The notes below the pieces were generated by a model. It was not told the origin of the DNA, searched no databases, and worked only from the letters and a program-made list of their open reading frames with translations. The position numbers and the translations under genes were made by a program. From Kiritimatiellia bacterium (lineage in GTDB: Bacteria > Verrucomicrobiota > Kiritimatiellia > UBA8416 > SLMC01), in the NCBI GenBank assembly GCA_007133745.1, contig SLMC01000317.1, forward strand, positions 1 through 18,925: a stretch of DNA of 18,925 nucleotides, in the 5' to 3' direction. Shown piece after piece: positions 1,375 to 14,215 of this stretch. Position 1 is the first letter of the stretch. Each line of letters starts with the position of its first letter.

Positions 1375-2817
1375 ATGACGGTGAAGAAAAGAGGGGGGGG
1401 TCGCAAGGTGACGCAAAGGAGAAAAAACAGACGCGGTTTTCATGCGCCAACCCGGTCGTGGCGGTTGAGCGTTCTTCTTTTGGCATGGGCTTTGCCGGGT
1501 GCGGGGTGGGCATTCGATGTCAACGACATGGATTGGAGTCTCAAGGGAGATGCGTTCGTCAAGGCGACGCGCGATCTCAAGCGGGACAGCGATCTTGAGG
1601 CGCGTCAGGCGCTGGACAGTCGGGCCCGGCTCGAGAATACGCTGCGTTTCGGCGATAGCGGCGTTATGGCGGCGCTGCACGGAGAGGCGCGTTACGAAGC
1701 GTTCGACATGCGGGAAGGGGGGAACTGGGATTTTCTGCTTCGGGAAGCCTATGCCGAATTCCGGCGCGAGACCTTCAATATCGGCTTGGGCCGCCAGATC
1801 GTCACATGGGGAAAGCTGGACGATATGATGATTCTGGACCAGCTTTCGCCGCAGGATTTCCGCTGGTTCGCCTTTTACACCAAGCAGGAACGCAAAATCC
1901 CCGTGTTCATGCTCAAAACCGGGTATTACGGCCCGCGCTATTCGATCGAGGGGGTCTTGATTCCGGTTTTCACGCCGTCGGAGATCGACTATTTCGGGAC
2001 CGACTGGGCGCTGTTCGGGCGCATGAAGGAAACCGTGGCCGGCGGGCCCTGGCCGGAGCCGGTCAAACAGATGGTCGGGTCGATCGACATTGACGACCGT
2101 ACGGCGGCCAATACGGCGGAGGGCGGAGTTCGGCTGCGGGCGACGGAAGGCCGTACCGACTACGCGTTGTATTACCTGTCTTATTACAACCGCTTGCCGG
2201 CCTTGCGCGAATACACGCCCGCTGGGCGCTTGACCAAGCAGTTTCTTTTTATGCCCGGCCCGGATACGTTGAGCGCGCTGGCGGCGGCGAATCCGACGGC
2301 TCGGGACTTGACCCTGGATGCCGGATACGAACGCGTACACGCGGTGGGCGTGGATTTCGAAACCGTGATGGGGTCGTACGGGGTGCGTGGCGAATGCGGA
2401 TTCTTTTCCGATTTGCCGTTCACCCGCGCGAGCGATTTGGCCTATGTTCGCAAAAAGACCTTGGCGGCCGGAATCGGCGTCGATTACACGACCTTCAACA
2501 ACCTGTACTGGAACGTGCAGGTGGTGGCCAACAAGATTTTGAACACCGAGGATTTGGTCGAGACCGAGTCGTTTTCGCAGGAAATCGTTTTGAATGTCAA
2601 CAGGGACTTCATGATGGGCGATTTGACTTTGGACTTCAGCGGAATCTATCAGATCACGGAGGGCGGCTGGATGGCACGCCCGGAAATGGCTTACACGATG
2701 CGGGCGGGACTGGATCTGATTTGCGGCCTGCTCTTGCTCGGCGGCGACGAGACATCCATGTTCGGCCGTTACAAGCACAAGGACCTGATTTACACCCAGC
2801 TTCGGTACCGGTTCTGA
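1375..2817 (+). CDS. Outer-membrane beta-barrel protein, possibly DUF1302-like; partner of the upstream LolA-like protein
   Basis: Long ORF with a Sec signal (RSWRLSVLLLAWALPGAGWA). The C-terminal ...QLRYRF ends in Phe, typical of OM beta-barrels. The start is ambiguous: ATG 1375, or GTG 1408 with a strong GAGGGGGG RBS. Confidence 0.55.
   Translation: MTVKKRGGGRKVTQRRKNRRGFHAPTRSWRLSVLLLAWALPGAGWAFDVNDMDWSLKGDAFVKATRDLKRDSDLEARQALDSRARLENTLRFGDSGVMAALHGEARYEAFDMREGGNWDFLLREAYAEFRRETFNIGLGRQIVTWGKLDDMMILDQLSPQDFRWFAFYTKQERKIPVFMLKTGYYGPRYSIEGVLIPVFTPSEIDYFGTDWALFGRMKETVAGGPWPEPVKQMVGSIDIDDRTAANTAEGGVRLRATEGRTDYALYYLSYYNRLPALREYTPAGRLTKQFLFMPGPDTLSALAAANPTARDLTLDAGYERVHAVGVDFETVMGSYGVRGECGFFSDLPFTRASDLAYVRKKTLAAGIGVDYTTFNNLYWNVQVVANKILNTEDLVETESFSQEIVLNVNRDFMMGDLTLDFSGIYQITEGGWMARPEMAYTMRAGLDLICGLLLLGGDETSMFGRYKHKDLIYTQLRYRF
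1393..1400. repeat. Homopolymeric G8 tract at the start of the beta-barrel gene
   Basis: The sequence gaGGGGGGGGtc lies inside the ORF if ATG 1375 is the start. It is the RBS for the alternative GTG at 1408. Confidence 0.85.
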
Positions 2818-2886
2818 CTCCAAATTTGCCGCTTGCATTCCGGCTCGGATTTTGGAAAAGTTCGCGTATTGAAGGATTGGTGCGGT

Positions 2887-2916
2887 TTGGTCGGGCTTGG
2901 TCCGCCTGCATATAAT
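2887..2916 (+). promoter_or_regulatory. Putative sigma70-type promoter for the NfeD-flotillin operon, with phased TTGGT repeats upstream
   Basis: -35-like TTGGTC (2887-2892), 18-nt spacer, perfect TATAAT (2911-2916), ~55 bp before the start. TTGGT recurs three times at ~10-bp spacing between 2877 and 2901. Confidence 0.35.
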
Positions 2917-2966
2917 CTGATCCCGTAGGTTCTATTAGTTTGCGGCCTTAGGCCGCCCCTGGGAGG

Positions 2967-3593
2967 ATGCCCGTGAGCGCGTGGTGGGAGAGTTTGGACG
3001 GCTTGACCAGGGCCTTGTACGGGGTGGCGCTGTTTTTCAGCGTCTTGTTCGTTTGGCAACTGGCGGCTACGCTGTTGGGGCTGGGCGGCGATGCGGCGGA
3101 CGATGCTGACGCGACGGACGGCGATTTTTCGGATGCGGGCGACGACGCCGTTGAAACCATGACGGCTTTCAGGCTCTTGAGCATCCGTTCGATCATCACG
3201 TTTCTTACGCTTTTTTCCTGGGGTGGCGCTTTGTATTTGAGCGACGGTCGCAGTGCGCGCTACGCGATCGGAGTGTCCAGTTTGTGGGGGCTGTTCGGCA
3301 TGCTGTGCGTCGCCGGCCTTCTGTACGTGCTGCCGCGGCTGGCCCATACGGGCACCAAGAACATGGCGTCGGCGGTTGGCGCAAGCGGGCAAGTCTATTT
3401 GGATATTCCGGAAAACGGGGACGGGGAAGTGCGTGTGAATGTCAGCGGCATCGTGTCCTATGTCAAGGCGCGCGCGAAAGACGGACAGGCGCTCAAGGCT
3501 GGAACGCCGGTGGTGGTCGCGCGTCGGCTGAGTTCGACCCTGCTGGAAGTCGAGCGGATCAACGAAAGCAAAACACAGGGAGGTTCTTCATGA
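2967..3593 (+). CDS. NfeD-like membrane protein (YqiJ/YuaF family), flotillin partner
   Basis: Hydrophobic N-terminal segments, an acidic loop and a C-terminal beta-rich OB-like region (VRVNVSGIVSYVKARAKDGQ...GTPVVVARR). The stop overlaps the flotillin start (ATGA). GTG at 2973 has the better GGAGG spacing than ATG 2967. Confidence 0.6.
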   Translation: MPVSAWWESLDGLTRALYGVALFFSVLFVWQLAATLLGLGGDAADDADATDGDFSDAGDDAVETMTAFRLLSIRSIITFLTLFSWGGALYLSDGRSARYAIGVSSLWGLFGMLCVAGLLYVLPRLAHTGTKNMASAVGASGQVYLDIPENGDGEVRVNVSGIVSYVKARAKDGQALKAGTPVVVARRLSSTLLEVERINESKTQGGSS

Positions 3594-5113
3594 GCATGAC
3601 AGCGTTGCATTCGGCCATGACGGCGCTTGCGCAAGCCGGGGGCGGGCGGAGGGGCGGGGCGCCGGTGGGTCTTATTTTGGCCTTGATTCTCGGGGCGACG
3701 GCTATCGTGCTGATTATGAGTTTCGCCAAGCGCTATATGCGCTGTCCGTCGAACAAGATTCTTGTGATTTACGGCAAGACGGGGAGCGGGGTCGCCCGGT
3801 GCATTCACGGCGGCGCCGCCTTCGTGTGGCCTTTGTTTCAATCGTGCGCCTACCTTGATCTCGAGCCGTTCGTGGTGCCGATCGACTTGAAAAGCGCGCT
3901 GTCTTCCGAAAACATTCGCGTCACGGTTCCCACGACCGTGACCGCCGCCATTTCGACCGATCGGGGCGTCATGGAAAACGCGGCCATTCGTTTGCTCGGT
4001 CTCTCGGATCAGCAGATTCGCGATCAGGCGCAGGACATCATTCTCGGTCAGATGCGCGCGGTGATCGCCACGATGAAGATCGAGGAGATCAACCAGGACC
4101 GTCAGGCGTTTCTCTCTAAGGTCAACGAGGCGGTCTCGGGCGAGCTGGAAAAAATCGGGTTGCAATTGATCAACGTCAATATTCGCGATATCGAAGACGA
4201 TTCCGGTTACATTGTCGCCCTGGGTCGCCGTGCCGCCGCCGAGGCGATCAACCAGGCCAATGTCGATGTGGCCGAACAGGAGAAGATGGGGGAGACCGGC
4301 GTGGCCGCGCGACAGCGCGACCAGCGCACAGCGGTTGCGGCCTCCATGGCCGAAGCGGAGATTGGCGAAGCCGAGGCCGACCGCAATCGCCGTTCGCGCG
4401 CGTCGCAACTGAACGCCGAGGCGGTTCAGGCGGAAACGGAAGCCGACTCCCGCAAGGCGGAGTATCAGGCCAACCAGCGCGTGGCCGAGGAAGCGGCGCG
4501 CAATCGCGCGGAATCGGCCGCTCGCGACGCCGACGGCGCGATTCGCGTGGCTCAGGAAGTAGCCGAGGAAAAGGCCGAGGAGGCGCGTGCGGAACGCGAA
4601 AAGGCGCGCCTGAACGCCGAGGTCATCGTGCCGGCCAATATTGATCGGGATCGCGTGATTATTGCCGCCGACGCGGCTCGCGAGCAGGCGGTTCGGGTGG
4701 CCAAGGGCGAAGCCGAAGCGGCTCTGGCGAAGATGCGGGCGGAAGGCGAAGGCGTAAAGGCCATTCTTGCCGGCAAGGCGGCCGGCTATCAGGCGCTGGT
4801 GCAATCCTGCGCCACGGCGCAACAGGCGGCGTCCTTGCTGCTTATCGAAAAGCTGCAGGACATCGCCGAAATTCAGGCGCAAGCCATTCAGGATCTGCCT
4901 ATCGAAAAAATCGTCGTTTGGGACGGCGGCGGCCAGAATGGCGGCATTGCCGGTCTGGGCCAGCGACTCATGGGCGCTTTGCCGCCCATGCATGAACTGG
5001 CGCGTCAAATCGGATTGGAGCTGCCGGATTATCTCGGGAAGACCGCCGGAGTCGGCGTTGCCACCGCGCCGCCCGAGGCCAAGTCCGATGCGGCCGGGCA
5101 GGACTCGGCCTGA
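3590..5113 (+). CDS. Flotillin (SPFH/band-7 family, YqiK/FloT-like)
   Basis: TM helix, SPFH-like region (RVTVPTTVTAAISTD...IIL GQMRAVIATMKIEEINQDRQAF) and a long Ala/Glu-rich coiled coil. A GGAGG RBS precedes it, with ATGA overlap onto NfeD. This is the canonical nfeD-flotillin pairing. Confidence 0.8.
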   Translation: MSMTALHSAMTALAQAGGGRRGGAPVGLILALILGATAIVLIMSFAKRYMRCPSNKILVIYGKTGSGVARCIHGGAAFVWPLFQSCAYLDLEPFVVPIDLKSALSSENIRVTVPTTVTAAISTDRGVMENAAIRLLGLSDQQIRDQAQDIILGQMRAVIATMKIEEINQDRQAFLSKVNEAVSGELEKIGLQLINVNIRDIEDDSGYIVALGRRAAAEAINQANVDVAEQEKMGETGVAARQRDQRTAVAASMAEAEIGEAEADRNRRSRASQLNAEAVQAETEADSRKAEYQANQRVAEEAARNRAESAARDADGAIRVAQEVAEEKAEEARAEREKARLNAEVIVPANIDRDRVIIAADAAREQAVRVAKGEAEAALAKMRAEGEGVKAILAGKAAGYQALVQSCATAQQAASLLLIEKLQDIAEIQAQAIQDLPIEKIVVWDGGGQNGGIAGLGQRLMGALPPMHELARQIGLELPDYLGKTAGVGVATAPPEAKSDAAGQDSA

Positions 5114-5147
5114 TTATTGACGTCGCCCACTGAACAACGGATGAATC

Positions 5148-6278
5148 ATGGATTCTTTGGCTAAAGCGGAGCGGGTGGCCTATCTGGCCAATGTGCTTGC
5201 GATCGCCGCGCACGCAGGCGAAATAGGCCCTGAAGAAGCGCGCGTGATTGAACATGTCGCCGCCCGCGTGGCGGCGACCGATGCGGACATGGAGGCGGCT
5301 CGTCATTTGCAGGAAAGCGGGCATTACAAAATGGCGCTGATGCGCGATCAGCGCATCCGCATGGCGAACTTGGAAGACATGGTGCTGGTCGCGCTGGCCG
5401 ACGGAACGATTCGGGAAGCCGAATCGGCTCCAATCGAAAAATTGGCCGGAGCCATGCGCTACTCTCAGGTCGATATCGAAATGGCGGTTCGGCGAGCGAA
5501 GCAGCGTTTGCGAAAACTCGCAAACCAGCCGTCGCGGCCGACGGCGGCCCCGAAGACCGTTGCGACTCGGCGACGCCCGGCCCGAACCGTGTCGCGACCG
5601 GATCCGAAAAGCGGGCCGCCGCCTCCGTTGCCCGTGCCGCCCAATGCCGAGGAAGCGATCGATCAGCCGGAATCCGAATCCGAAGCCGAACCGGATGCGA
5701 AGATGGCAGAGAAACAGCATGCTCGGGAATCGTTGCCCGCCGAACCCGAAGCCGATTCGGTTTCGCAAGATGAAGAGGCGTTGATTCTGGCCGCGTGTAT
5801 CGAGGCGCGCAACGCCGCCGCGAATCCGGATGCCCATTGTTTCGGCGTGGGCGATGCCTCGCTCAATATTTGGGGTTGTTGCATGGCTCGCATGCCATGG
5901 GCCGCAGGCCAGAATTGGCTTTCTCTCGGAACGTTCCGCAGCGACAACGTTTTCGAGTTCGATCGCGACGCCATCCGCCGCGAGGTTGTTCAGGCCTTAC
6001 GGCCGGTCGCGAGTTGCCCCTGCCTGCAGGCCGAGACCGTCGGGAAGGCGATCGATTGCATGCCGTCCCGCGCCCGTGTCGGGCCGCGCTGGGTTCGTCG
6101 CCCCGCGAAGCCGGACGGCACAGGGGTTGTGCTGAACGTCCGCGAACGCGTTCACGGGTGCGAGGTATGCAGTCGGCGCAGGGTGGAGGGGCTGGACCCT
6201 GTCGGCGTTGGGGAGGCGCGCCGTATCGTCCGCGACGTCTGTCGCGCAGTCAATCGTCCGCCGCTCGCTTTTCCCTGA
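5148..6278 (+). CDS. TerB-like domain protein with a Pro-rich linker and a Cys-rich C-terminal domain
   Basis: The N-terminal ~125 aa resembles the TerB/DjlA-N fold (VLAIAAHAGEIGPEEARVIE...VLVALADGTIREAE). The acidic/Pro linker and the C-terminal Cys cluster (CC, C-P-C, H-G-C-E-V-C) are not recognised. Confidence 0.5.
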   Translation: MDSLAKAERVAYLANVLAIAAHAGEIGPEEARVIEHVAARVAATDADMEAARHLQESGHYKMALMRDQRIRMANLEDMVLVALADGTIREAESAPIEKLAGAMRYSQVDIEMAVRRAKQRLRKLANQPSRPTAAPKTVATRRRPARTVSRPDPKSGPPPPLPVPPNAEEAIDQPESESEAEPDAKMAEKQHARESLPAEPEADSVSQDEEALILAACIEARNAAANPDAHCFGVGDASLNIWGCCMARMPWAAGQNWLSLGTFRSDNVFEFDRDAIRREVVQALRPVASCPCLQAETVGKAIDCMPSRARVGPRWVRRPAKPDGTGVVLNVRERVHGCEVCSRRRVEGLDPVGVGEARRIVRDVCRAVNRPPLAFP

Positions 6279-6346
6279 GAAGCTCGCGCGGTCAGGGGGA
6301 CTGCCGGGAATGGCGCTTAGATTAGTTTCTGTTGCGGAAAGGCTGC

Positions 6347-6366
6347 GGACGACACGGAGGTCGTCC
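6347..6366. other. Perfect hairpin GGACGAC-acggag-GTCGTCC
   Basis: 7-bp perfect stem with a 6-nt loop in the TerB/phosphoesterase intergenic region. No T-tract follows. Confidence 0.6.
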
Positions 6367-6466
6367 CTCCATTGCAAAAACAAAGCGATTTCAAGGGGTT
6401 TGGAGGGTCGGGCTCCGTACCGACCGCTTCCCGCAACCGCAACAACGTAAGGGAACGAACACTTTT

Positions 6467-8188
6467 ATGCGATACGCGATCGTTTCAGACATTCATGCCA
6501 ACCGTCAGGCGTGGGAGGAAACGCTCAACGACATCCTGAAATGGAACGTGGACGCCACCATTTGCCTGGGAGACATTGTCGGCTACGGGCCCATGCCGGA
6601 ACCGGTTCTGGAAAGCGTCTGCGAATACGTGGACGATATCGTGATCGGGAATCACGATGCCGTCATAGGCGGTCGTTCTTCGCCGGAGCTTTTCGGCGCG
6701 CACGCCCTGAAGTCTCTGGAATGGACCCGGTCCCGACTGGACGACGCCTCCATACGGTTTCTGGGCGATTTGCCGTCCCTGATCGAGGGCGACGGATTCG
6801 CCTTGGCTCATGCCGAGGTGTTGGACCCCGAAATGTTCGGATATATCGAGAATCCGACCGACGCCCGCTTGAACTTCGAAAGCAACGCCTATCCGCTTAT
6901 CTTCGTAGGGCATACCCATTACCCGGAAATTTACGCGCTGGATACCGTCAGCAATGCCGTGCAGCGGATTCCGCCACAGGATTTCGCCATGGCGGACGAA
7001 CACCGCTATCTGGTCAATGTGGGGTCGGTGGGCGATCCGCGCGACGGAACGCGCGAAGCCAGTTACTGCATTTTCGACGATGAATCCCGTTCGATCGTCT
7101 TTCGCAAGCTGCTGTTCGATTTGGACGGCTACAGAGCCGACATGGCGGATCGCAAGGTCGATTACAAACCCTATTTCATCATGGCCGCCGCGCATCCCGG
7201 CGCGCGACCGCCTCCGAAAGACTGGGCCATGGAGATGCCGCCCCGGTCGCTCGATGAAGACAAAAAACCGGTCAAGATCATTCATGTTTCGCAATCGTCG
7301 GGCGGGATGAACGCGCGGCAGGAAGCCCAGGCCGAAGCGGAACGTTACAAGCGTCGGCAGGTGTCGGAAGCCCTGAAGCAGGCCAGAGAAACGGACGAGA
7401 CGCGGCGCCTGGCGCAGGCCGAGGCCGCGCGCGAAGCCTTGCGCAAGCGTCAATTGGCGATGGAAGCGGCCCGGCAAAAGAAGGAGGAAGAGCGGCGCAT
7501 AAGCGAAGAAGAGGCTCGCCGCAGAAACAGGGAACTCCTGCTGATTTCCAGGGAACGGGATGAAGAACGGCAGAGAATACAGGAAGCGCATGCCGAACGT
7601 CTGAGACAGGCTCTCGAAGAAAGAGCGGAGGCCGCTCGCAAGAGAGCGGAAGTTCTGCGCTGGAAGGCGGAACAGGAACGCCAGGAACGCGACAAACGCT
7701 TGCATCGGCGCAAGCTGGAACTGGCCCGCGCCGCCGAAGAACGGCGCAGGCTGCGCGAGGCCGAACGTGAAGCCGAAGCCGCCGAAATTCGCGAAAAACT
7801 GCGAAACAAAAAGAAGTTGGCCACCCAAATCGCGCCGGAAAGACGGACGAAAATGCCGGAGCCGTCAGCCGTTTCGGCGCCGCCGTCGGCTCGGCCTGTC
7901 GCGGCGCCTCCTTCGTTGCACGAGACGCGTGAAATTGTTTTCAAACCCGGAACATCGCCGCAAAAAACGGAGGCGCCGCAGCCCGGGGCGCCGGTCGACG
8001 ATTCGCCTCGTCCGCACGATGCGATCGACGCGATGCGAACGCTTAAGGATGCCGATCCCGAAGAGCGGCGCGCGGCCATTGCCCGGCTTGCCGCCGAAAA
8101 ACAGCGTCAGCGCCGCGAAGAAGACGCGGCTCGCAAGCAAAAGGCCCGCGAGGCCATCCGAAAAAAGCAGGCCGCCGCCCGCAAATAA
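6467..8188 (+). CDS. Calcineurin-like metallophosphoesterase fused to an ER/K-rich charged helical region and a Pro-rich tail
   Basis: Metallophosphoesterase motifs are present (DIHAN, GDIVGYGP, GNHD, GHTHY). About 190 aa of E/R/K/A-rich sequence follows, typical of a single alpha helix or coiled coil, then a P/A/S-rich tail. The start is taken at ATG 6467 (MRYAIVSDIHAN). Confidence 0.7.
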   Translation: MRYAIVSDIHANRQAWEETLNDILKWNVDATICLGDIVGYGPMPEPVLESVCEYVDDIVIGNHDAVIGGRSSPELFGAHALKSLEWTRSRLDDASIRFLGDLPSLIEGDGFALAHAEVLDPEMFGYIENPTDARLNFESNAYPLIFVGHTHYPEIYALDTVSNAVQRIPPQDFAMADEHRYLVNVGSVGDPRDGTREASYCIFDDESRSIVFRKLLFDLDGYRADMADRKVDYKPYFIMAAAHPGARPPPKDWAMEMPPRSLDEDKKPVKIIHVSQSSGGMNARQEAQAEAERYKRRQVSEALKQARETDETRRLAQAEAAREALRKRQLAMEAARQKKEEERRISEEEARRRNRELLLISRERDEERQRIQEAHAERLRQALEERAEAARKRAEVLRWKAEQERQERDKRLHRRKLELARAAEERRRLREAEREAEAAEIREKLRNKKKLATQIAPERRTKMPEPSAVSAPPSARPVAAPPSLHETREIVFKPGTSPQKTEAPQPGAPVDDSPRPHDAIDAMRTLKDADPEERRAAIARLAAEKQRQRREEDAARKQKAREAIRKKQAAARK

Positions 8189-8238
8189 TGAAAGAAGAGC
8201 TTGTGTTTCGAGAAAAACAGGCTAGCATGTCGGTTTTG

Positions 8239-8398
8239 CATGGAATGATGGAACGTTGGAATAATGACGGAACGGGAAATGGCCTCTCTCGGAAATCCAG
8301 CATCGCACGGTGCGAAAGGCAGGCGGAAGACAAAGAACCGACCACTGGCTGTCGAGGGCGTGCAACATTCCAATCCTTCGCTATTCCCAAATTCCATA
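8239..8398. repeat. Composite GGAAT-repeat inverted-repeat element, copy 2: left arm 8239-8282, right arm 8363-8398, near-central palindrome CGCACGGTGCG 8304-8314
   Basis: Left arm is ATGGAATgaTGGAACgTTGGAATaaTGAcGGAACgGGAAAtGG. The right arm reverse complement is TATGGAATtTGGGAATagcGAAGGATTGGAATG. It lies between the phosphoesterase stop and the 8439 gene start. Confidence 0.75.
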
Positions 8399-8438
8399 CG
8401 TCATTGGATGGCTGTGACGGCATAAAAGGGAGAGACCT

Positions 8439-10058
8439 ATGAACGACAAAGATGATTCGAACGATTTCATGAAAGTCCTTTCGGCGTTCCGGGATATCGA
8501 GGCGATGCTTCATGGAGAAGAAGAAACCGTTGCGCTTCCCGTTCGCGACCTGATCGACCTTTTCCCGGAAGACTATATTTCCATGGACGATCCTTCGGCT
8601 GTTCCCGAAGGCAAGGCGACGATTAAGATCGACAATCTGTTTTTCCAGTTGTCCAAGGGCAAGGTGGAGGTCCCTGTTTCCGCGCTGGCTATCGCCTTGC
8701 CGGCGCAATTCATCCGCCCTCAGGCGCTTGAAGACGAACACACCATGATTCGGCTTCCGTTGCAGGCGGTGGTCAAGGCCATTGATCCCGATGTGCTGAA
8801 AGGGAAAATGGCGCCCAAAACCACTCGGCACCAGGCCATGAACATTCCCGACCCTTTTGGTCCGAAATCCGAGCCGAAGCCGGAATCCGCTCCGGCCGTT
8901 CCCGTTCCCCCGGCAGAAGAGATCGCGCCATCGCCGCCGCCCGAGCCGCCTGTCGAAGAGGCGGAACCCGCGCAACCCGAGCGGGAACCGGAATCTGTTT
9001 CCGAACCGTCCCTCGCGCCTGAAGCGACATCGCTTCCCGAGCCGCCAGCGGAGCCGGAACCCGTCGAGGAGGCGGTTGCCGAGTCCGAACCTGTCGCTGC
9101 TGCCGAGCCGCCGCCCGAGCCGTCCGCGGAAGCCGTGACGCCTTCTCCGCTACAGCCGGAGGAGCCGCAGGAAGACGCCTTGGTTTCCGAGTCGGCGATT
9201 TCCGAACCTGCGGAATCCGATCGGGAACCTGAGTCTGCGGCCGAGCCGCCTTTCGAATCGAAACCGGCCGCGCCACCCGCCACGGTTTACGATTCCATTC
9301 GGTCTGTTTTTGCCAGGCCGAAAACCGCTGCGGAAGCGCTGCAAGAGTCCCCGTCCGAGCCGGAAACGCCCGAAGAAGCGTCGCCGGAAGCGCCGGAGCC
9401 CGAGCCGCTCGCATGCGACGAGCCAGACGACTTTGGCGGTGTCAATCTAAACACGGCAACCGTCGAACAATTGATGACTTTGGACGGGGTTACGGATCTT
9501 GTCGCGGAGACCGTTTTGCAATATCGGCGAGAGAATGGCGAATTCAAAAGCATCTTTGAACTGGGCAAGATTCCCCGTGTCGGCCGCAAGACGTTCAGGA
9601 AAATGACGGGCATGCCTTACAGCATGTCGCATCGTCATCGTCGTCTCAAACTGGCCGGCTTGCTGAACATGCCGCCCGAATCGATCGGGCGTTTGTCGGC
9701 CATTGCGCAGCGGTTGGCATCGCGTCCGGGCTTTTCGGGTTGCGTCGTATCCAATGCCGAGGGCTTGGTTCTGGCGGAACATGGCGCATCCGAATATGCG
9801 GAGAAACTTGGCGCGGTCATGCCTCGTCTTGCACGGCAAATCGGGGAGAACGTCGGGCTGCTTGAGATGGGCGCGGTCGAATCCGTGTCTATCTGTTTAA
9901 AGAACCGCATGTTCACGGTTGCCGTGTCGGGGGACATCTGCCTGACGGTAATGCACAAGCGCAACACCTTGACGCGCAGCCAGCTTGTGCTGGTTCGGAA
10001 AACGGCCGAAGAACTGGCCTGGCTGCTGAGTCATCGCGCCTATGTCGGGCGCGGATAG
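8439..10058 (+). CDS. Multidomain protein: unknown N-domain, long acidic Pro/Glu-rich disordered linker, ComEA-type helix-hairpin-helix, C-terminal Roadblock/LC7 (MglB-like) domain
   Basis: The HhH region is GVNLNTATVEQLMTLDGVTDLVAETVLQYRRENGEFKSIFELGKIPRVGRKTF. The C-terminal ~110 aa fit the Roadblock/LC7 pattern (GFSGCVVSNAEGLVLAEHG...MFTVAVSGDICLTVMHKRN). The RBS is AAGGGAGAG. Confidence 0.6.
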   Translation: MNDKDDSNDFMKVLSAFRDIEAMLHGEEETVALPVRDLIDLFPEDYISMDDPSAVPEGKATIKIDNLFFQLSKGKVEVPVSALAIALPAQFIRPQALEDEHTMIRLPLQAVVKAIDPDVLKGKMAPKTTRHQAMNIPDPFGPKSEPKPESAPAVPVPPAEEIAPSPPPEPPVEEAEPAQPEREPESVSEPSLAPEATSLPEPPAEPEPVEEAVAESEPVAAAEPPPEPSAEAVTPSPLQPEEPQEDALVSESAISEPAESDREPESAAEPPFESKPAAPPATVYDSIRSVFARPKTAAEALQESPSEPETPEEASPEAPEPEPLACDEPDDFGGVNLNTATVEQLMTLDGVTDLVAETVLQYRRENGEFKSIFELGKIPRVGRKTFRKMTGMPYSMSHRHRRLKLAGLLNMPPESIGRLSAIAQRLASRPGFSGCVVSNAEGLVLAEHGASEYAEKLGAVMPRLARQIGENVGLLEMGAVESVSICLKNRMFTVAVSGDICLTVMHKRNTLTRSQLVLVRKTAEELAWLLSHRAYVGRG

Positions 10059-10068
10059 GAGGCGATTC

Positions 10069-12021
10069 ATGCTCGATTTGGCCAAGTTCAAGCAGCATCT
10101 GGTGGGTTCCGGAGCTGTTGAAAAAGAACAGCTTGAACGGGCGCAGAAGCACGCGTTCGATCACGGCCTATCGTTGAGCGAGGCGTTGTTGGCTCTGAAC
10201 ATTGTCGGCAGCCGAAAGCTGGGCAAGTGTCTGTCCGAGATATACGGGCTGCCCTACGTCAGCCTTCAGAACCGTCCGCTGTCGCCCGAGGCCCAAACCA
10301 TGCTGTCGGCTCCGTGCGTTGTCCAATGGAAGGCGTTTCCCGTTCATTGCGAGCGCAAGGAGAACATTTTCACGTTGGCGGTTCACGATCCCGATCAGAT
10401 GGTTAAAATCGAGAAGGCGTTCCGGTTTCTTTTGCAACCGGTCGCGCTGGGGTTCGTGATCGTGTCGCGGCCGGAGCTGGACGAGGCGCTGGAAAAGCAT
10501 TACGGGACCGCCGTGGAGCGAATGAGGGCTGCCGACGGCAAGCCGCCGGTCGTCGCCCCGTCCGCCGGCAAAAAGAAGCTCAAGCTGAGCGGTTTGCATC
10601 GGGACGCTCCGTCATCCGCCGCCGTTCCTTCGGACGCCGCGTCTCTTTCCAAGACGGCGGACGCGTCCAAGCCCGATGCGAAGGCGTCGGCTTCGTCCGC
10701 AGCCGCCGCGCCGCGCCCGCTTTCCCGCTATCATCCCGCTGCCGCGCCCGCCCGAAGCGCTGCCGAGCCGCGCCCGTTGTCGTCGGCCGGCGCTGCGCCG
10801 CAGACCGATACGGCGGCGGACAAGCCGGCCGCGACACGCGATGTCGATGTTACGGATATGAGCCGGTCGCTGCTCAATTCCGTTGCCTTGCTGGCGCAAA
10901 CCCGGCTGGGCGGCGATTCCGTCAAAATCCTTCAAGCCAAAACCCGTGTCCGTTATTGCCGACTGCTGGCCGTGCGCTCGAACCTTGCGCCCGACTCCTG
11001 CGATGCCATTGCCATGGCCGCCTGGCTGTCCGTTCTGGACGCTCCCGGCGAGGTGGTTAAACAGCTCGTGACCCCCTATAATCTGGACGCTATTCTGCAA
11101 GCGGACGGCGATGCGCATGCCGCGTTGTTGCCGGAATCCAAAATTCTCGGTCTAGTTCGACGCTACCAGGATTTCAAGGCGAGCGATCCGGATGCGGCAC
11201 GCGACATCAACCGGGTTCGCGACCATTTGCGCGCGCACGAGGCGCCCGATCCCGAGCAGGACGCGTTCATGGAGACGTTTTTGCAGATCCTGATGGACGA
11301 AGAGTTTCTTTCCGAAATGGGCAAGGCCAGCGGGCGCATTCTGATCGTCGATCCTGTCGAGGCCGCTGGCGCGTCGCTGGCGCCGCCTCTGGCCGACGAC
11401 GGCTACGAGGTGGATGTGGTTCCCGACAGCGCTTCAGCCGAAGAACGCGTTTGGACCGAACAGCCCGATGCCGTTTTGGTGTCCATGGATTTGCCGCGAC
11501 AGAGCGGCCTGCGGTTCTGTCAAAAAATGAAACGGGACGAGGCGACGTCGGCAATGCCTCTGATCGCGCTTATTCCGAAGCCGGACGATCAGCTTGCCAC
11601 CGAATGCTTTCGCGCCGGGGTCGAGGACTGTTTCCCGAAACCGGTGGATTTGGAACGGCTTTTTATCAGACTGCATCGAATGATCAAGCCGCCAGCCGTC
11701 CCGGTTGCCGAAGCGGGCGTCAAAGGATCGCTGGCCGACATGAGTTTCACGGACATGATTCAGATTCTTTGCGCCGGCGGCAAAAGCATGGAGATTCTTC
11801 TGGTCAGGGAAGGCGTCAAGGGCTGCGTGCACGTTTCCGAGGGCAATGTCGTTCACGCCGAGGCGGGCGACAAAAAGGGCGAAGCGGCCTTTTACGACAT
11901 CATGCAATGGAAGGATGGCGACTTCACGACCCGGCCCCGAACGGAATTCCCGGAGCGGACCGTTCAAGGGTCGCTGATGGGCCTGCTTATGGAAGGCGCC
12001 CGGCTTTCCGACGAGTCGTAA
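10069..12021 (+). CDS. Signalling protein: GspE/PilB N-terminal (T2SSE_N, MshEN-like) domain, Ala/Pro/Ser linker, helical middle region, response-regulator receiver (REC) and C-terminal PATAN/DUF4388 domain
   Basis: The N-terminus matches T2SSE_N (LSLSEALLALNIVGSRKLGKCLSEIYGLPYVSL...TLAVHDPDQMV). REC is recognised at ILIVDPVE...DAVLVSMDLPRQSG...PLIALIPKPD with a phosphoacceptor-type Asp. DUF4388/PATAN is recognised at DMSFTDMIQILCAGGKSMEILLV...GEAAFYDIMQWKDGDF. A strong RBS TAGGAGG lies 7 nt before ATG 10069. Confidence 0.6.
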   Translation: MLDLAKFKQHLVGSGAVEKEQLERAQKHAFDHGLSLSEALLALNIVGSRKLGKCLSEIYGLPYVSLQNRPLSPEAQTMLSAPCVVQWKAFPVHCERKENIFTLAVHDPDQMVKIEKAFRFLLQPVALGFVIVSRPELDEALEKHYGTAVERMRAADGKPPVVAPSAGKKKLKLSGLHRDAPSSAAVPSDAASLSKTADASKPDAKASASSAAAAPRPLSRYHPAAAPARSAAEPRPLSSAGAAPQTDTAADKPAATRDVDVTDMSRSLLNSVALLAQTRLGGDSVKILQAKTRVRYCRLLAVRSNLAPDSCDAIAMAAWLSVLDAPGEVVKQLVTPYNLDAILQADGDAHAALLPESKILGLVRRYQDFKASDPDAARDINRVRDHLRAHEAPDPEQDAFMETFLQILMDEEFLSEMGKASGRILIVDPVEAAGASLAPPLADDGYEVDVVPDSASAEERVWTEQPDAVLVSMDLPRQSGLRFCQKMKRDEATSAMPLIALIPKPDDQLATECFRAGVEDCFPKPVDLERLFIRLHRMIKPPAVPVAEAGVKGSLADMSFTDMIQILCAGGKSMEILLVREGVKGCVHVSEGNVVHAEAGDKKGEAAFYDIMQWKDGDFTTRPRTEFPERTVQGSLMGLLMEGARLSDES

Positions 12022-12036
12022 GGCAAGCCCCGTGAA

Positions 12037-12062
12037 CGCCGATGTCCGCGTCGGCCTTTCTT
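12037..12062. terminator. Putative bidirectional intrinsic terminator between convergent genes
   Basis: GCCGA-tgtccgcg-TCGGC stem-loop followed by CTTTCTT. It lies between the stop at 12021 (+) and the stop at 12110 (-). Confidence 0.35.
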
Positions 12063-12109
12063 GCGGGGACTGCGATTCGGTGCGGCGAGGGTGACTTTCC
12101 CGTCCGGCG

Positions 12110-12565
12110 CTATGATTCCTGCCGTAATGCGCGCACTTGACGCAGGCACTCCGCATCGGCCTGATGGCGTGCGTCAGGGATCTGTTCCTTCACGGCGAGC
12201 AAACTCTCCAGGTCAATCCAGTTGGTTTCGACGCTTCCGTACCGACCGATATCCCGTTTGTTCCACGCCGTCTCGAAATCGAGGTGGCCAACAGATTGCA
12301 GGATGTCAATGCGGTTTGGCGGAAGGCCAATTTGCAGTATTTGTTCGGTCTTGCCCGGATCAAGAAGATAGGGGCATCCGAATTCTGCAAGCGCGTTGTT
12401 CGCTCGTGCGATGTTGTCGGCGGCGGGATCGATCCAGATGTCCATGTCTTTGGTGAAACGCGGCTTGGCATGGTAAACGAAGGCCATGCCGCCCACAATC
12501 AGGTAGCGGGCATTCTGGCGATGCAAGGCCGAAAGCATATCCTGGAAATCCGCGATACTGTCCAT
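12110..12565 (-). CDS. Nucleotidyltransferase-fold protein (MNT/AbiEii-like), the downstream member of a TA-like pair
   Basis: 151 aa with a GG...DxD-type signature: YLIVGGMAFVYHAKPRFTKDMDIWID. Its start ATG overlaps the upstream stop by 1 nt (TGATGG). A GGGAGGA RBS sits inside the end of the upstream gene. Confidence 0.5.
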   Translation of the reverse strand: MDSIADFQDMLSALHRQNARYLIVGGMAFVYHAKPRFTKDMDIWIDPAADNIARANNALAEFGCPYLLDPGKTEQILQIGLPPNRIDILQSVGHLDFETAWNKRDIGRYGSVETNWIDLESLLAVKEQIPDARHQADAECLRQVRALRQES

Positions 12566-12828
12566 CAGTCGTCCTCCCAATCGAAATCCGTCTTGCCGGC
12601 GTGAATCGCCTTGAGATCGTTGCGCAAGGCCGTCAGGGCGGAGAGCCGTTCCTGCGGCGTTCGGCTTTGCCAAAAACGCAAATCCCAATCGGTGGCTTCC
12701 TGATGGCTGTTCGCGACATGGGCAACCATTCGCCTGCGCCGTTCAAGGGCTTGAGGGGAAAGAGGGACCGTCTCGCTTGGCGCTGTCATCATGGCCTTTC
12801 GTTCGCGTGCGGATCGAGGATCGTCCAA
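12565..12828 (-). CDS. Small basic/acidic protein (75-87 aa), the upstream partner of the nucleotidyltransferase gene
   Basis: ORF translationally coupled to the downstream gene. Possible starts are 12828 or the internal MM at 12792/12789, the latter with a GAAAGG RBS. No recognisable domain, though a short R-x-H patch is present. Confidence 0.4.
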   Translation of the reverse strand: MDDPRSARERKAMMTAPSETVPLSPQALERRRRMVAHVANSHQEATDWDLRFWQSRTPQERLSALTALRNDLKAIHAGKTDFDWEDD

Positions 12829-13264
12829 CGCGTGGGTCCTTTGTCACGGCTGCCTTTACCTCACGCGGGCTGCGCTCGCATTCCAAATTTTAGATTTCAA
12901 ACTTCAAATCCAAATGATGCGACGCAGAAGCGCCGCATTACATGACGAAACAATCTAAGTAAAAGATACAACGGCGCAGAATACGCGTCAATGGAAAAGC
13001 CGTTCCATTTTGACCGCTCACGGTCAGCAGACGACAGGGAGGTTGTCCCTCCAGCATTGGGATGGACTGTTTTTGGGTTGCGGCTTTGCCGCGCGGCGGT
13101 CTTCATGGTCAGTTTTGTTTCTTTCATTTCCGGTTTGACTTTCTCTGCGGCCTGCGCTAGGGTGGCCGCTCTTTTTTCAGGAATCCGTCCCTGCCGCTGT
13201 CTGTTGCCGCGTGCGGGGCGGTCCAAAACATCACGAAGCCATACAACCAAACAAGGAGTTCCTT

Positions 13265-14215
13265 ATGATCGTATCGACCGATGCCCTGTTCAAGCATGCC
13301 TATAAAAATTACGCCGTCGGCGCCTACAACATCAACAATGCCGAGCAGATCATGGGTCTGTTCCGCGGGAATATGGACAGCAAGGCGCCGTTTATCGTTC
13401 AATTGTCCAAGGGCGCGCGGTCCTATACGGACAAGCGGCTGCTGGAAGCCATGATTCGGGCTGCCGACGAGATTTTCCCCGACGCCGTTTTCGCCGTGCA
13501 TCTGGATCACGGCGACGAGGCCGCCTGCATGGATTGCATCGAAAGCGGCTTCTATAGCTCGGTCATGATCGATGCCAGCGGCGAGGAGTTCGACGAGAAC
13601 ATCGCCATTACCAAGCGCGTTGTGGATGCCGCCCACAAGAAGAACGTTTCCGTCGAAGCCGAGCTGGGCAAATTGGGCGGGGTCGAGGAGCATGTGTCGG
13701 TGGACGAGGCCGACGCCAAGCTGACGGACCCGAAACAGGTGCAGGAATTCGTCGAGCGCAGCGGTTGCGATAGTCTGGCTTGCGCGATCGGCACGAGCCA
13801 TGGCGCCTACAAGTTCACGGGATCGCAAGGCCTGCATTTCAATGTGATCGAAGAGATTGTCAAGCTGCTGCCGGGCTTCCCGCTGGTCATGCACGGGTCC
13901 AGCTCGGTGCCGCAGGACGAAGTGGAGCGCATCAACGCGGCCGGCGGCGACCTGAAGGGGGCCAAGGGCGTGGACGAGGACCAGATCAGCAAGGCATCCA
14001 AGATGGGCGTGACCAAGGTCAACATCGACACCGACGGCCGTTTGGTTTGGTGCCGGGTCCACCGCGAGCTTTTCCTCGCGAAACCCGATGTCTTCGATCT
14101 GCGTCCGGCCGGCAAGATATTCATGGACGAGTACGCGAAGTACATCATGCACAAGAACGAGGTGCTCGGCAGCTCCGGGAAGCTGGACGACGTGCGCCAA
14201 GCCGTGCAAGGGTGA
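13265..14215 (+). CDS. fba: Fructose-bisphosphate aldolase, class II
   Basis: 316 aa containing HLDHG, GTSHGAYK and MHGSS motifs typical of class II FBA/tagatose-bisphosphate aldolases. An AAGGAG RBS precedes the ATG. Confidence 0.85.
   Translation: MIVSTDALFKHAYKNYAVGAYNINNAEQIMGLFRGNMDSKAPFIVQLSKGARSYTDKRLLEAMIRAADEIFPDAVFAVHLDHGDEAACMDCIESGFYSSVMIDASGEEFDENIAITKRVVDAAHKKNVSVEAELGKLGGVEEHVSVDEADAKLTDPKQVQEFVERSGCDSLACAIGTSHGAYKFTGSQGLHFNVIEEIVKLLPGFPLVMHGSSSVPQDEVERINAAGGDLKGAKGVDEDQISKASKMGVTKVNIDTDGRLVWCRVHRELFLAKPDVFDLRPAGKIFMDEYAKYIMHKNEVLGSSGKLDDVRQAVQG

Follow-up and report, generated by a model that had tools for sequence, protein, structure and literature searches.

Organization of the locus

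The 18,925-nt contig SLMC01000317.1 of a Kiritimatiellia bacterium (assembly GCA_007133745.1), hereafter the window, was analyzed at its full length, which is that of the whole NCBI contig. It carries two adjacent forward-strand genes, gene 1 and gene 2, whose products join a Roadblock/LC7 domain to a helix-hairpin-helix (HhH) domain and a PATAN domain to several domains of signaling type, respectively. An earlier note on this DNA, made from the sequence alone, had expected a link between PATAN, Roadblock, and the small GTPase MglA, and orthologous pairs in related bacteria do lie directly beside true mglA-mglB genes. Related loci are denoted below by L-numbers.

Gene 1 (8439–10058, +) encodes 539 residues that comprise an N-terminal domain, an acidic Pro/Glu linker, the HhH domain, and the Roadblock domain. 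Gene 2 (10069–12021, +) encodes an MshEN-like domain, an Ala/Ser/Pro linker, an HD-GYP-like domain, a pseudo-receiver, and the PATAN domain. The reading frame of gene 2 ends at 12021 and has possible starts at 10042 and 10069. In TAGGAGGCGATTCATG, AGGAGG stands 6 nt 5′ of the ATG at 10069, and this ribosome-binding site (10057–10062, +) overlaps the stop codon of gene 1. Its placement fixes the length of the gene 2 product at 650 residues and the gap to the gene 1 stop codon at exactly 10 bp, the spacing given in the earlier note.

A 250-bp intergenic region (8189–8438, +) precedes gene 1, with the ribosome-binding site GGGAGA ahead of the ATG at 8439; at the corresponding place, relatives have the promoter region of the divergent mglA and gene 1. 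An 84-residue open reading frame at 8188–8442 (+), which overlaps the start of gene 1 by 4 bp and has no Pfam match, is probably not a gene. Downstream, a terminator-like hairpin, GCCGATGTCCGCGTCGGC, starts 17 bp past the gene 2 stop codon and is followed by a T-rich tail (12038–12065, +; hairpin 12038–12055). The hairpin scan overall was not above chance, and this hairpin is suggestive by its position only. Given the tight spacing, the intergenic region upstream, and the hairpin downstream, the two genes look like a self-contained operon. Neither product has a hydrophobic segment (Kyte-Doolittle maximum over 19 residues, 1.26 for gene 1 and 1.45 for gene 2), and both are therefore predicted to be cytoplasmic; for the gene 1 product, no signal peptide or membrane segment was found by this measure.

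Domains of the gene 1 product

The gene 1 product begins with a conserved domain that had been overlooked in the earlier note (residues ∼25–142; 8511–8864, +). This domain matches nothing in Pfam, even at E ≤ 10, is kept in all orthologues, and ends in a conserved PDPF motif. An AlphaFold2 model from a two-sequence alignment places four β-α units in its core with a predicted local distance difference test score (pLDDT) of 75–90. A word-indexed search with the domain gave a single match; HMMER run in full against 1.84 billion representatives gave 302 proteins at E ≤ 1e-3. Among the best 149 of these 302 representatives, 115 have one to four copies of the domain followed by HhH and Roadblock and 15 have the domain, in one or more copies, followed by Roadblock, so that 130 of the 149 share the arrangement (N-domain)n-(HhH)-Roadblock. 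Judged by sequence, gene 1-type proteins form one coherent family, and the N-terminal domain appears to be essentially private to that family. Tandem copies occur, with two in L009 (2821–3750, +) and up to four elsewhere (representatives P0105, P0117, and P0124).

The disordered linker that follows (residues 143–330; 8865–9428, +) is composed of 25% Pro, 23% Glu, 16% Ala, and 11% Ser, with a net charge of −40, and differs between orthologues in both length and sequence. Its earlier description as acidic and rich in Pro and Glu stands, but the length had been put at about 170 residues and is 188.

C-terminal to the linker is a ComEA-type double HhH (HHH_3, PF12836, E = 8.6e-17; residues 333–391; 9435–9611, +) with PDB matches to EEPD1 (9yi2), ComEA (8dfk, E = 1.7e-10), and Tex. 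The score with the comEA model TIGR01259 is 43 bits (cutoff 152), and a weak T2SSK match was also seen. One Gly per hairpin is replaced in the window protein, and both hairpins depart from GhG.

The Roadblock/LC7 domain with its conserved flanks occupies residues 401–537 (9639–10049, +). Robl_LC7 (PF03259) matches residues 424–504 at 28.9 bits against a cutoff of 23, and this weak Pfam call holds because a profile of ten family Roadblock regions matches solved Roadblock/LC7 proteins in the PDB (Roadblock 7f8f, E = 1.6e-9; also dynein LC7 and LAMTOR2). No MglB structure was among the matches of this profile at E ≤ 10, and related clusters hold a separate MglB-like gene; the sequence thus identifies the gene 1 product as a probable additional Roadblock protein and not as MglB. 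Together, the HhH and Roadblock domains carry a net charge of +9.

Domains of the gene 2 product

The N-terminal domain of the gene 2 product (residues 1–150; 10069–10518, +) is of the PilB/MshE type. MshEN (PF05157) scores 38.8 bits on the full-length protein and 41.1 bits on the isolated domain (cutoff 23.1), and the best PDB matches are PilF (6f8l, E = 1.5e-11) and PilB (3jc8), then MshE (5htl) and XpsE. The two 24-residue motifs by which MshEN domains are recognized as binding cyclic di-GMP (c-di-GMP) were defined by Wang et al. (PMC5013675), and the relaxed motif, applied as the regular expression of that paper, is found in 0 of 11 family members. The c-di-GMP motif is accordingly absent from the window protein. 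In motif I, where KFKQHLVGSG forms residues 6–15, K-F-K replaces R-L-G and Ala replaces Gln; in motif II, S-L-S, Asn, and Ile stand at the key positions. Among the 11 members, the contact positions for Arg, Gly, and Gln are variable, a 1-residue indel within motif I of relatives breaks the motif spacing, and the N-terminal helical half of the domain is missing entirely from the gene 2 products of L011 and L020.

A second overlooked domain, of HD-GYP fold, spans residues ∼263–422 (10855–11334, +) and was found by fold comparison of a predicted structure with a pLDDT of 84.4. By sequence it has no Pfam match, including none to HD at E ≤ 10, and no PDB match. The metal-binding His and Asp residues (H...HD...H...HH...D) and the GYP residues are all lost. 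No His is present among the 43 invariant columns of the family alignment, and the domain, which appears catalytically dead, would therefore have no metal site.

The next domain has a receiver (REC) fold (Response_reg, PF00072, 56.8 bits; 11338–11670, +) and gives an ungapped HMMER alignment with PleD D1 at E = 7e-20. In the PleD alignment, Ser472 stands opposite the acceptor D53 and Pro429 opposite D10; Asp474 comes two residues too late for the acceptor position, Ile is found at the T87 position, and only Asp428 and the Lys of the KP motif remain. The acceptor column holds Ser, Ala, Glu, or Asp across the family, and the pseudo-receiver of FrzS is among the top PDB matches. Because the MshEN-like, HD-GYP-like, and receiver domains are all degenerate in sequence, the c-di-GMP or phosphorelay input to gene 2 that had been proposed earlier is unlikely. 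Most plausibly, these domains survive as interaction surfaces.

The C-terminal PATAN domain (DUF4388/PatA_N, PF14332; 11722–12015, +) scores 66.8 bits against a cutoff of 25 and is the most conserved block of the gene 2 family, with extended runs of invariant residues, among them MSFTDMIQIL and LLMEGAR. All five domains named in the earlier note (HHH_3, Robl_LC7, MshEN, Response_reg, and DUF4388/PATAN) are thus recovered with Pfam. In L020, a minimal gene 2 of 245 residues (2518–3255, +) consists of the C-terminal half of MshEN and PATAN only and adjoins gene 1 and mglA.

Conservation of the pair and linkage to mglA and mglB

Gene neighborhoods were read with a tblastn panel of domain pieces, and a metagenome scan with a two-sequence query added four useful loci. 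Relatives of gene 2 come from metagenome-assembled genomes of Kiritimatiellia, Victivallales, Lentisphaerales, and Verrucomicrobia. Named relatives of gene 1, whose sole annotation is "helix-hairpin-helix domain-containing protein," belong to Kiritimatiellia, Lentisphaerae, and Methylacidiphilales, all within the Planctomycetes-Verrucomicrobia-Chlamydiae (PVC) group. Gene 1 is followed by gene 2 at a distance of 0–90 bp in ten loci (L003, L008, L009, L010, L011, L012, L017, L020, L021, and the window), and the two are thus conserved neighbors, as a two-gene module should be; in L007 they are convergent. A PATAN protein adjoins gene 1 in 15 of 18 loci. At distant gene 1 loci the partner differs, being either a PATAN-FHA protein or a 296–649-residue protein (X-PATAN) with a C-terminal PATAN domain, and PATAN is the constant.

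An mglA-mglB pair lies next to gene 1 in 13 of the 16 loci with a visible flank, the window being one of the three exceptions. The order is MglB←MglA←|→gene 1 in L003, L008, L010, L011, L012, L016, L019, L020, L027, L028, L029, and L030 and gene 1→MglA→MglB in L014. The neighboring GTPase is a true MglA, matching Thermus thermophilus MglA (3t12) at E = 2e-61 and keeping TVPGQ, Arg, and Gln, and the gene beyond it is MglB-like (NF052242, Robl_LC7). MglA, MglB, the gene 1 product, and an X-PATAN protein are the constant core of the PVC loci. Near the pair, the related loci share no conserved gene for a histidine kinase, GGDEF, or EAL protein.

Seven loci (L003, L008, L009, L010, L011, L012, and L017) have a fifth gene immediately downstream of gene 2 and always convergent with it. 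Its product, of 150–175 residues, is helical, carries the motif LxYGVALFFEGI, and belongs to no Pfam family; in L003 the gene lies at 12017–12544 (−).

Other genes of the related loci and of the window

Further genes adjoin the module in individual relatives. Next to the fifth gene of L003 is a gene for a GYF_2 and TPR protein (12599–13729, +); GltJ, a switch under MglA control in Myxococcus xanthus, also includes a GYF domain (PMC11135422). Sigma-54 activators adjoin the module in L007 (11822–13159, −; REC-AAA) and L011 (12197–13618, +; FHA-AAA-HTH_8). In distant clusters, FHA proteins flank the mglAB-gene 1 core, some of them fused to PATAN and others to an adenylate/guanylate-cyclase-like domain. 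The FHA-domain genes are on the reverse strand in L014 (6852–7889), L027 (3058–4209), L028 (1517–2674 and 8966–10102), and L030 (942–1955 and 7976–9130).

The remaining genes of the window encode LolA-like, DUF1302, NfeD-like, SPFH, TerB-like, metallophosphoesterase, aldolase, and PFOR proteins and a possible toxin-antitoxin pair, and none of them recurs in the other loci of the set. The run from 2967 to 8188 (+) comprises the NfeD-like gene (sub-threshold NfeD), an SPFH/Band_7 flotillin-like gene with its true start near 3590, the TerB-like gene, and the metallophosphoesterase gene, whose product has an Arg/Glu/Lys-rich coiled-coil tail of ∼330 residues. These four were considered as members of the module and rejected, as none recurs beside gene 1 or gene 2 elsewhere. 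A hidden Markov model of the fifth gene product finds no match in the window. Weak tblastn matches to it at 2934–3065 were rejected; the reading frame there encodes the NfeD-like membrane protein, and what matches is a hydrophobic YGVALFF stretch. The place of the fifth gene in relatives is taken in the window by two overlapping small genes of 151 and 74 codons (12110–12789, −). The 151-residue product has only sub-threshold similarity to DUF6036/AbiEii nucleotidyltransferases, and from sequence the two may be a toxin-antitoxin pair.

Proposed role and alternative explanations

We lean toward reading the gene 1 and gene 2 products as a cytoplasmic scaffold or adaptor pair of a PVC-type MglA/MglB polarity module. 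The pair is viewed as accessory to that module because MglA, MglB, gene 1, and X-PATAN persist together as the core of the PVC loci. The domain architectures, the lost ligand, catalytic, and phospho-acceptor residues, and the gene linkage are observed directly, and from them we infer the functional steps. By analogy with Roadblock platforms such as MglB and MglC, the Roadblock domain of gene 1 would dock onto MglB or MglA. The N-terminal domain repeats and the acidic Pro/Glu linker could give localization or multivalency, in a manner conceptually like RomR, and the basic HhH-Roadblock unit may contact DNA, perhaps gated by the acidic linker. The gene 2 product would be the output adaptor. In Synechocystis, PATAN is the output domain that binds PilB1 and PilC (10.1101/2021.06.11.447907), and by analogy the PATAN domain and the detached PilB-type N-terminal domain of gene 2 could engage the motor or platform of a type IV pilus or of a type II secretion-like system, with the HD-GYP-like and receiver-like domains acting as interaction surfaces and not as sensors.

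A more far-reaching version of this proposal is tentative, and we would not yet expect it to hold in full. In it, gene 1, gene 2, and often the fifth gene would be the PVC counterpart of RomR/RomX/MglC, an unrecognized set of MglA regulators and effectors. Through the repeat domain and the HhH-Roadblock unit, the GTPase cycle would be linked to the nucleoid or pole, and a PATAN protein built of "fossil" domains would signal to pilus or secretion motors by mimicry of the PilB N-terminal domain.

Several points weigh against a role in an MglA/MglB module. As the earlier note had remarked for the GTPase, the window itself holds no mglA or mglB homologue detectable by tblastn, over 8.4 kb upstream and 6.9 kb downstream of the pair. 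L009 (Kiritimatiellia) and L007 (Victivallales) also lack mglA and mglB nearby, and the closest homologue of gene 2, in L001/L006 with 64% identity, is a solitary gene flanked by tamB and tuf. Pilus or secretion genes show no consistent linkage to the pair in the related loci, where a single N_methyl gene occurs, in L014. The Roadblock sequence of gene 1 is not specifically MglB-like, and the HhH is presumed to bind DNA because of the family it belongs to, while both hairpins of the window protein are off GhG. The pair could then be uncoupled from MglA/MglB in Kiritimatiellia, including the window organism, and have a stand-alone function such as nucleoid-associated positioning or scaffolding, with MglA perhaps absent from the genome. 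The missing mglA and mglB in the window, L009, and L007, the solitary gene 2 of L006, and the missing fifth gene of the window would all fit this explanation, which we nonetheless judge unlikely. All blocks conserved in the orthologues beside mglAB are retained in the window proteins, at 40–50% identity in Roadblock, HhH, and PATAN; dispersed genes can still be partners, and the genomes concerned are represented by short contigs only. If the window organism has mglA-mglB, these genes must be located elsewhere in its genome, and for this window we infer the MglA link from the orthologues.

The remaining explanations set the GTPase aside. The residues described above make it very improbable that gene 2 senses c-di-GMP through MshEN and phosphorylation through the receiver and relays these signals to DNA or the nucleoid through the HhH of gene 1, or to secretion ATPases, as the earlier note had suggested. 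Both 24-residue motifs fail the relaxed pattern in all 11 members, with unconserved contacts, an indel, and two members without the helical half; the HD-GYP-like domain has no conserved His; and in the receiver, Ser occupies the acceptor position and Pro the second acidic one, with Ala, Glu, or Ser at the acceptor in orthologues. Nor does the neighborhood supply a conserved kinase, GGDEF, or EAL gene. Such signaling would draw on domain families that are truly present by Pfam, on N-terminal domains in Thermus PilF and Vibrio cholerae MshE that bind c-di-GMP (PMC5013675) and are the best structural relatives of that of gene 2, and on HD-GYP as likewise a c-di-GMP-related fold. Least probable of all is an accessory pair for DNA uptake or pilus biogenesis that serves a competence or type IV pilus machine with no involvement of small GTPases. 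HHH_3 is the DNA-binding fold of ComEA, T2SSK matches weakly, the N-terminal domain of gene 2 is closest to those of pilus ATPases, and in cyanobacteria, components of the pilus motor are bound by PATAN (10.1101/2021.06.11.447907). However, the gene 1 product has no signal peptide or anchor and hence is not periplasmic like ComEA, the comEA model falls far below its cutoff, and the genes conserved beside the pair are mglA and mglB and not com or pil genes.

Relation to known systems

The general link between PATAN and MglA/MglB is already published. Wuichet and Søgaard-Andersen (2014; PMC4316618) noted that PATAN genes are sometimes found near mglA/mglB and placed Verrucomicrobia in MglA group 5; as cited there, Makarova et al. 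(2006) had described the PATAN-mglA/mglB neighborhood. In M. xanthus, PATAN proteins co-occur with SgmX (PMC11580455). Our literature search found no paper joining Roadblock, helix-hairpin-helix, and MglB and nothing on MglA in PVC bacteria beyond the 2014 survey. Undescribed are the HhH-Roadblock fusion, the N-terminal domain of gene 1, the MshEN-like/HD-GYP-like/pseudo-receiver/PATAN architecture, and the conserved four- to five-gene cluster.

Among bacterial polarity switches based on small GTPases, MglA/MglB is the best understood, and its regulators and effectors (RomR/RomX, MglC, RomY, and SgmX) are known almost only from Myxococcus; the PVC hosts are poorly studied as to motility and polarity control. 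If the proposed role is correct, a distinct set of conserved partners in Verrucomicrobia, Lentisphaerae, and Kiritimatiellia would exemplify a different wiring of the same switch in another superphylum, and PATAN would gain a defined GTPase context. The analysis also delineates a new domain that has about 300 cluster representatives, and the gene 2 product is a clear example of a protein assembled from several inactivated signaling domains.

Individual parts of the pair have counterparts in other systems. Like the cyanobacterial regulators PatA, PixE, and PixG, the gene 2 product combines PATAN with a CheY-like domain, but PATAN lies on the C-terminal side of the receiver instead of the N-terminal side, the acceptor Asp is absent from the receiver, MshEN-like and HD-GYP-like domains precede it, and no chemosensory genes are nearby. 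The MshEN-like domain belongs by sequence to the same fold family as the MshEN/GspE-N1 domains of PilB, PilF, MshE, and XpsE and resembles that of the non-binding XpsE in the absence of the c-di-GMP motif; unlike these, it is not fused to a secretion ATPase, and two family members do without its helical half. Compared with the HD-GYP phosphodiesterases (RpfG type, PmGH, and PA4781) and the degenerate Bd1817, the HD-GYP-like domain has lost the metal-binding His and Asp residues and GYP and is not recognized by Pfam, and it precedes the receiver, the reverse of the order in RpfG. The HHH_3 domain is ∼45% identical over ∼55 residues to Bacillus subtilis ComEA (8dfk), whereas the gene 1 product is cytoplasmic by prediction, has no membrane anchor or OB/SLBB part, and is fused to Roadblock.

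Overall, the closest comparison is with the MglA/MglB/RomR-RomX/MglC module of M. xanthus and with the MglA/MglB of Thermus and Bdellovibrio. The PVC system differs in that no RomR, RomX, RomY, or MglC orthologue was identified, in that the Roadblock domain of gene 1 is fused to an HhH and a new repeat domain and partnered by a PATAN protein, and in that the window itself lacks mglA and mglB. The likeness lies in orthologues of gene 1 and gene 2 beside a true MglA and an MglB-like gene, to which gene 1 brings a second Roadblock domain, as MglC does, and a long Pro/Glu-rich disordered region, as in RomR, and gene 2 a receiver that, like that of FrzS, appears non-phosphorylatable.

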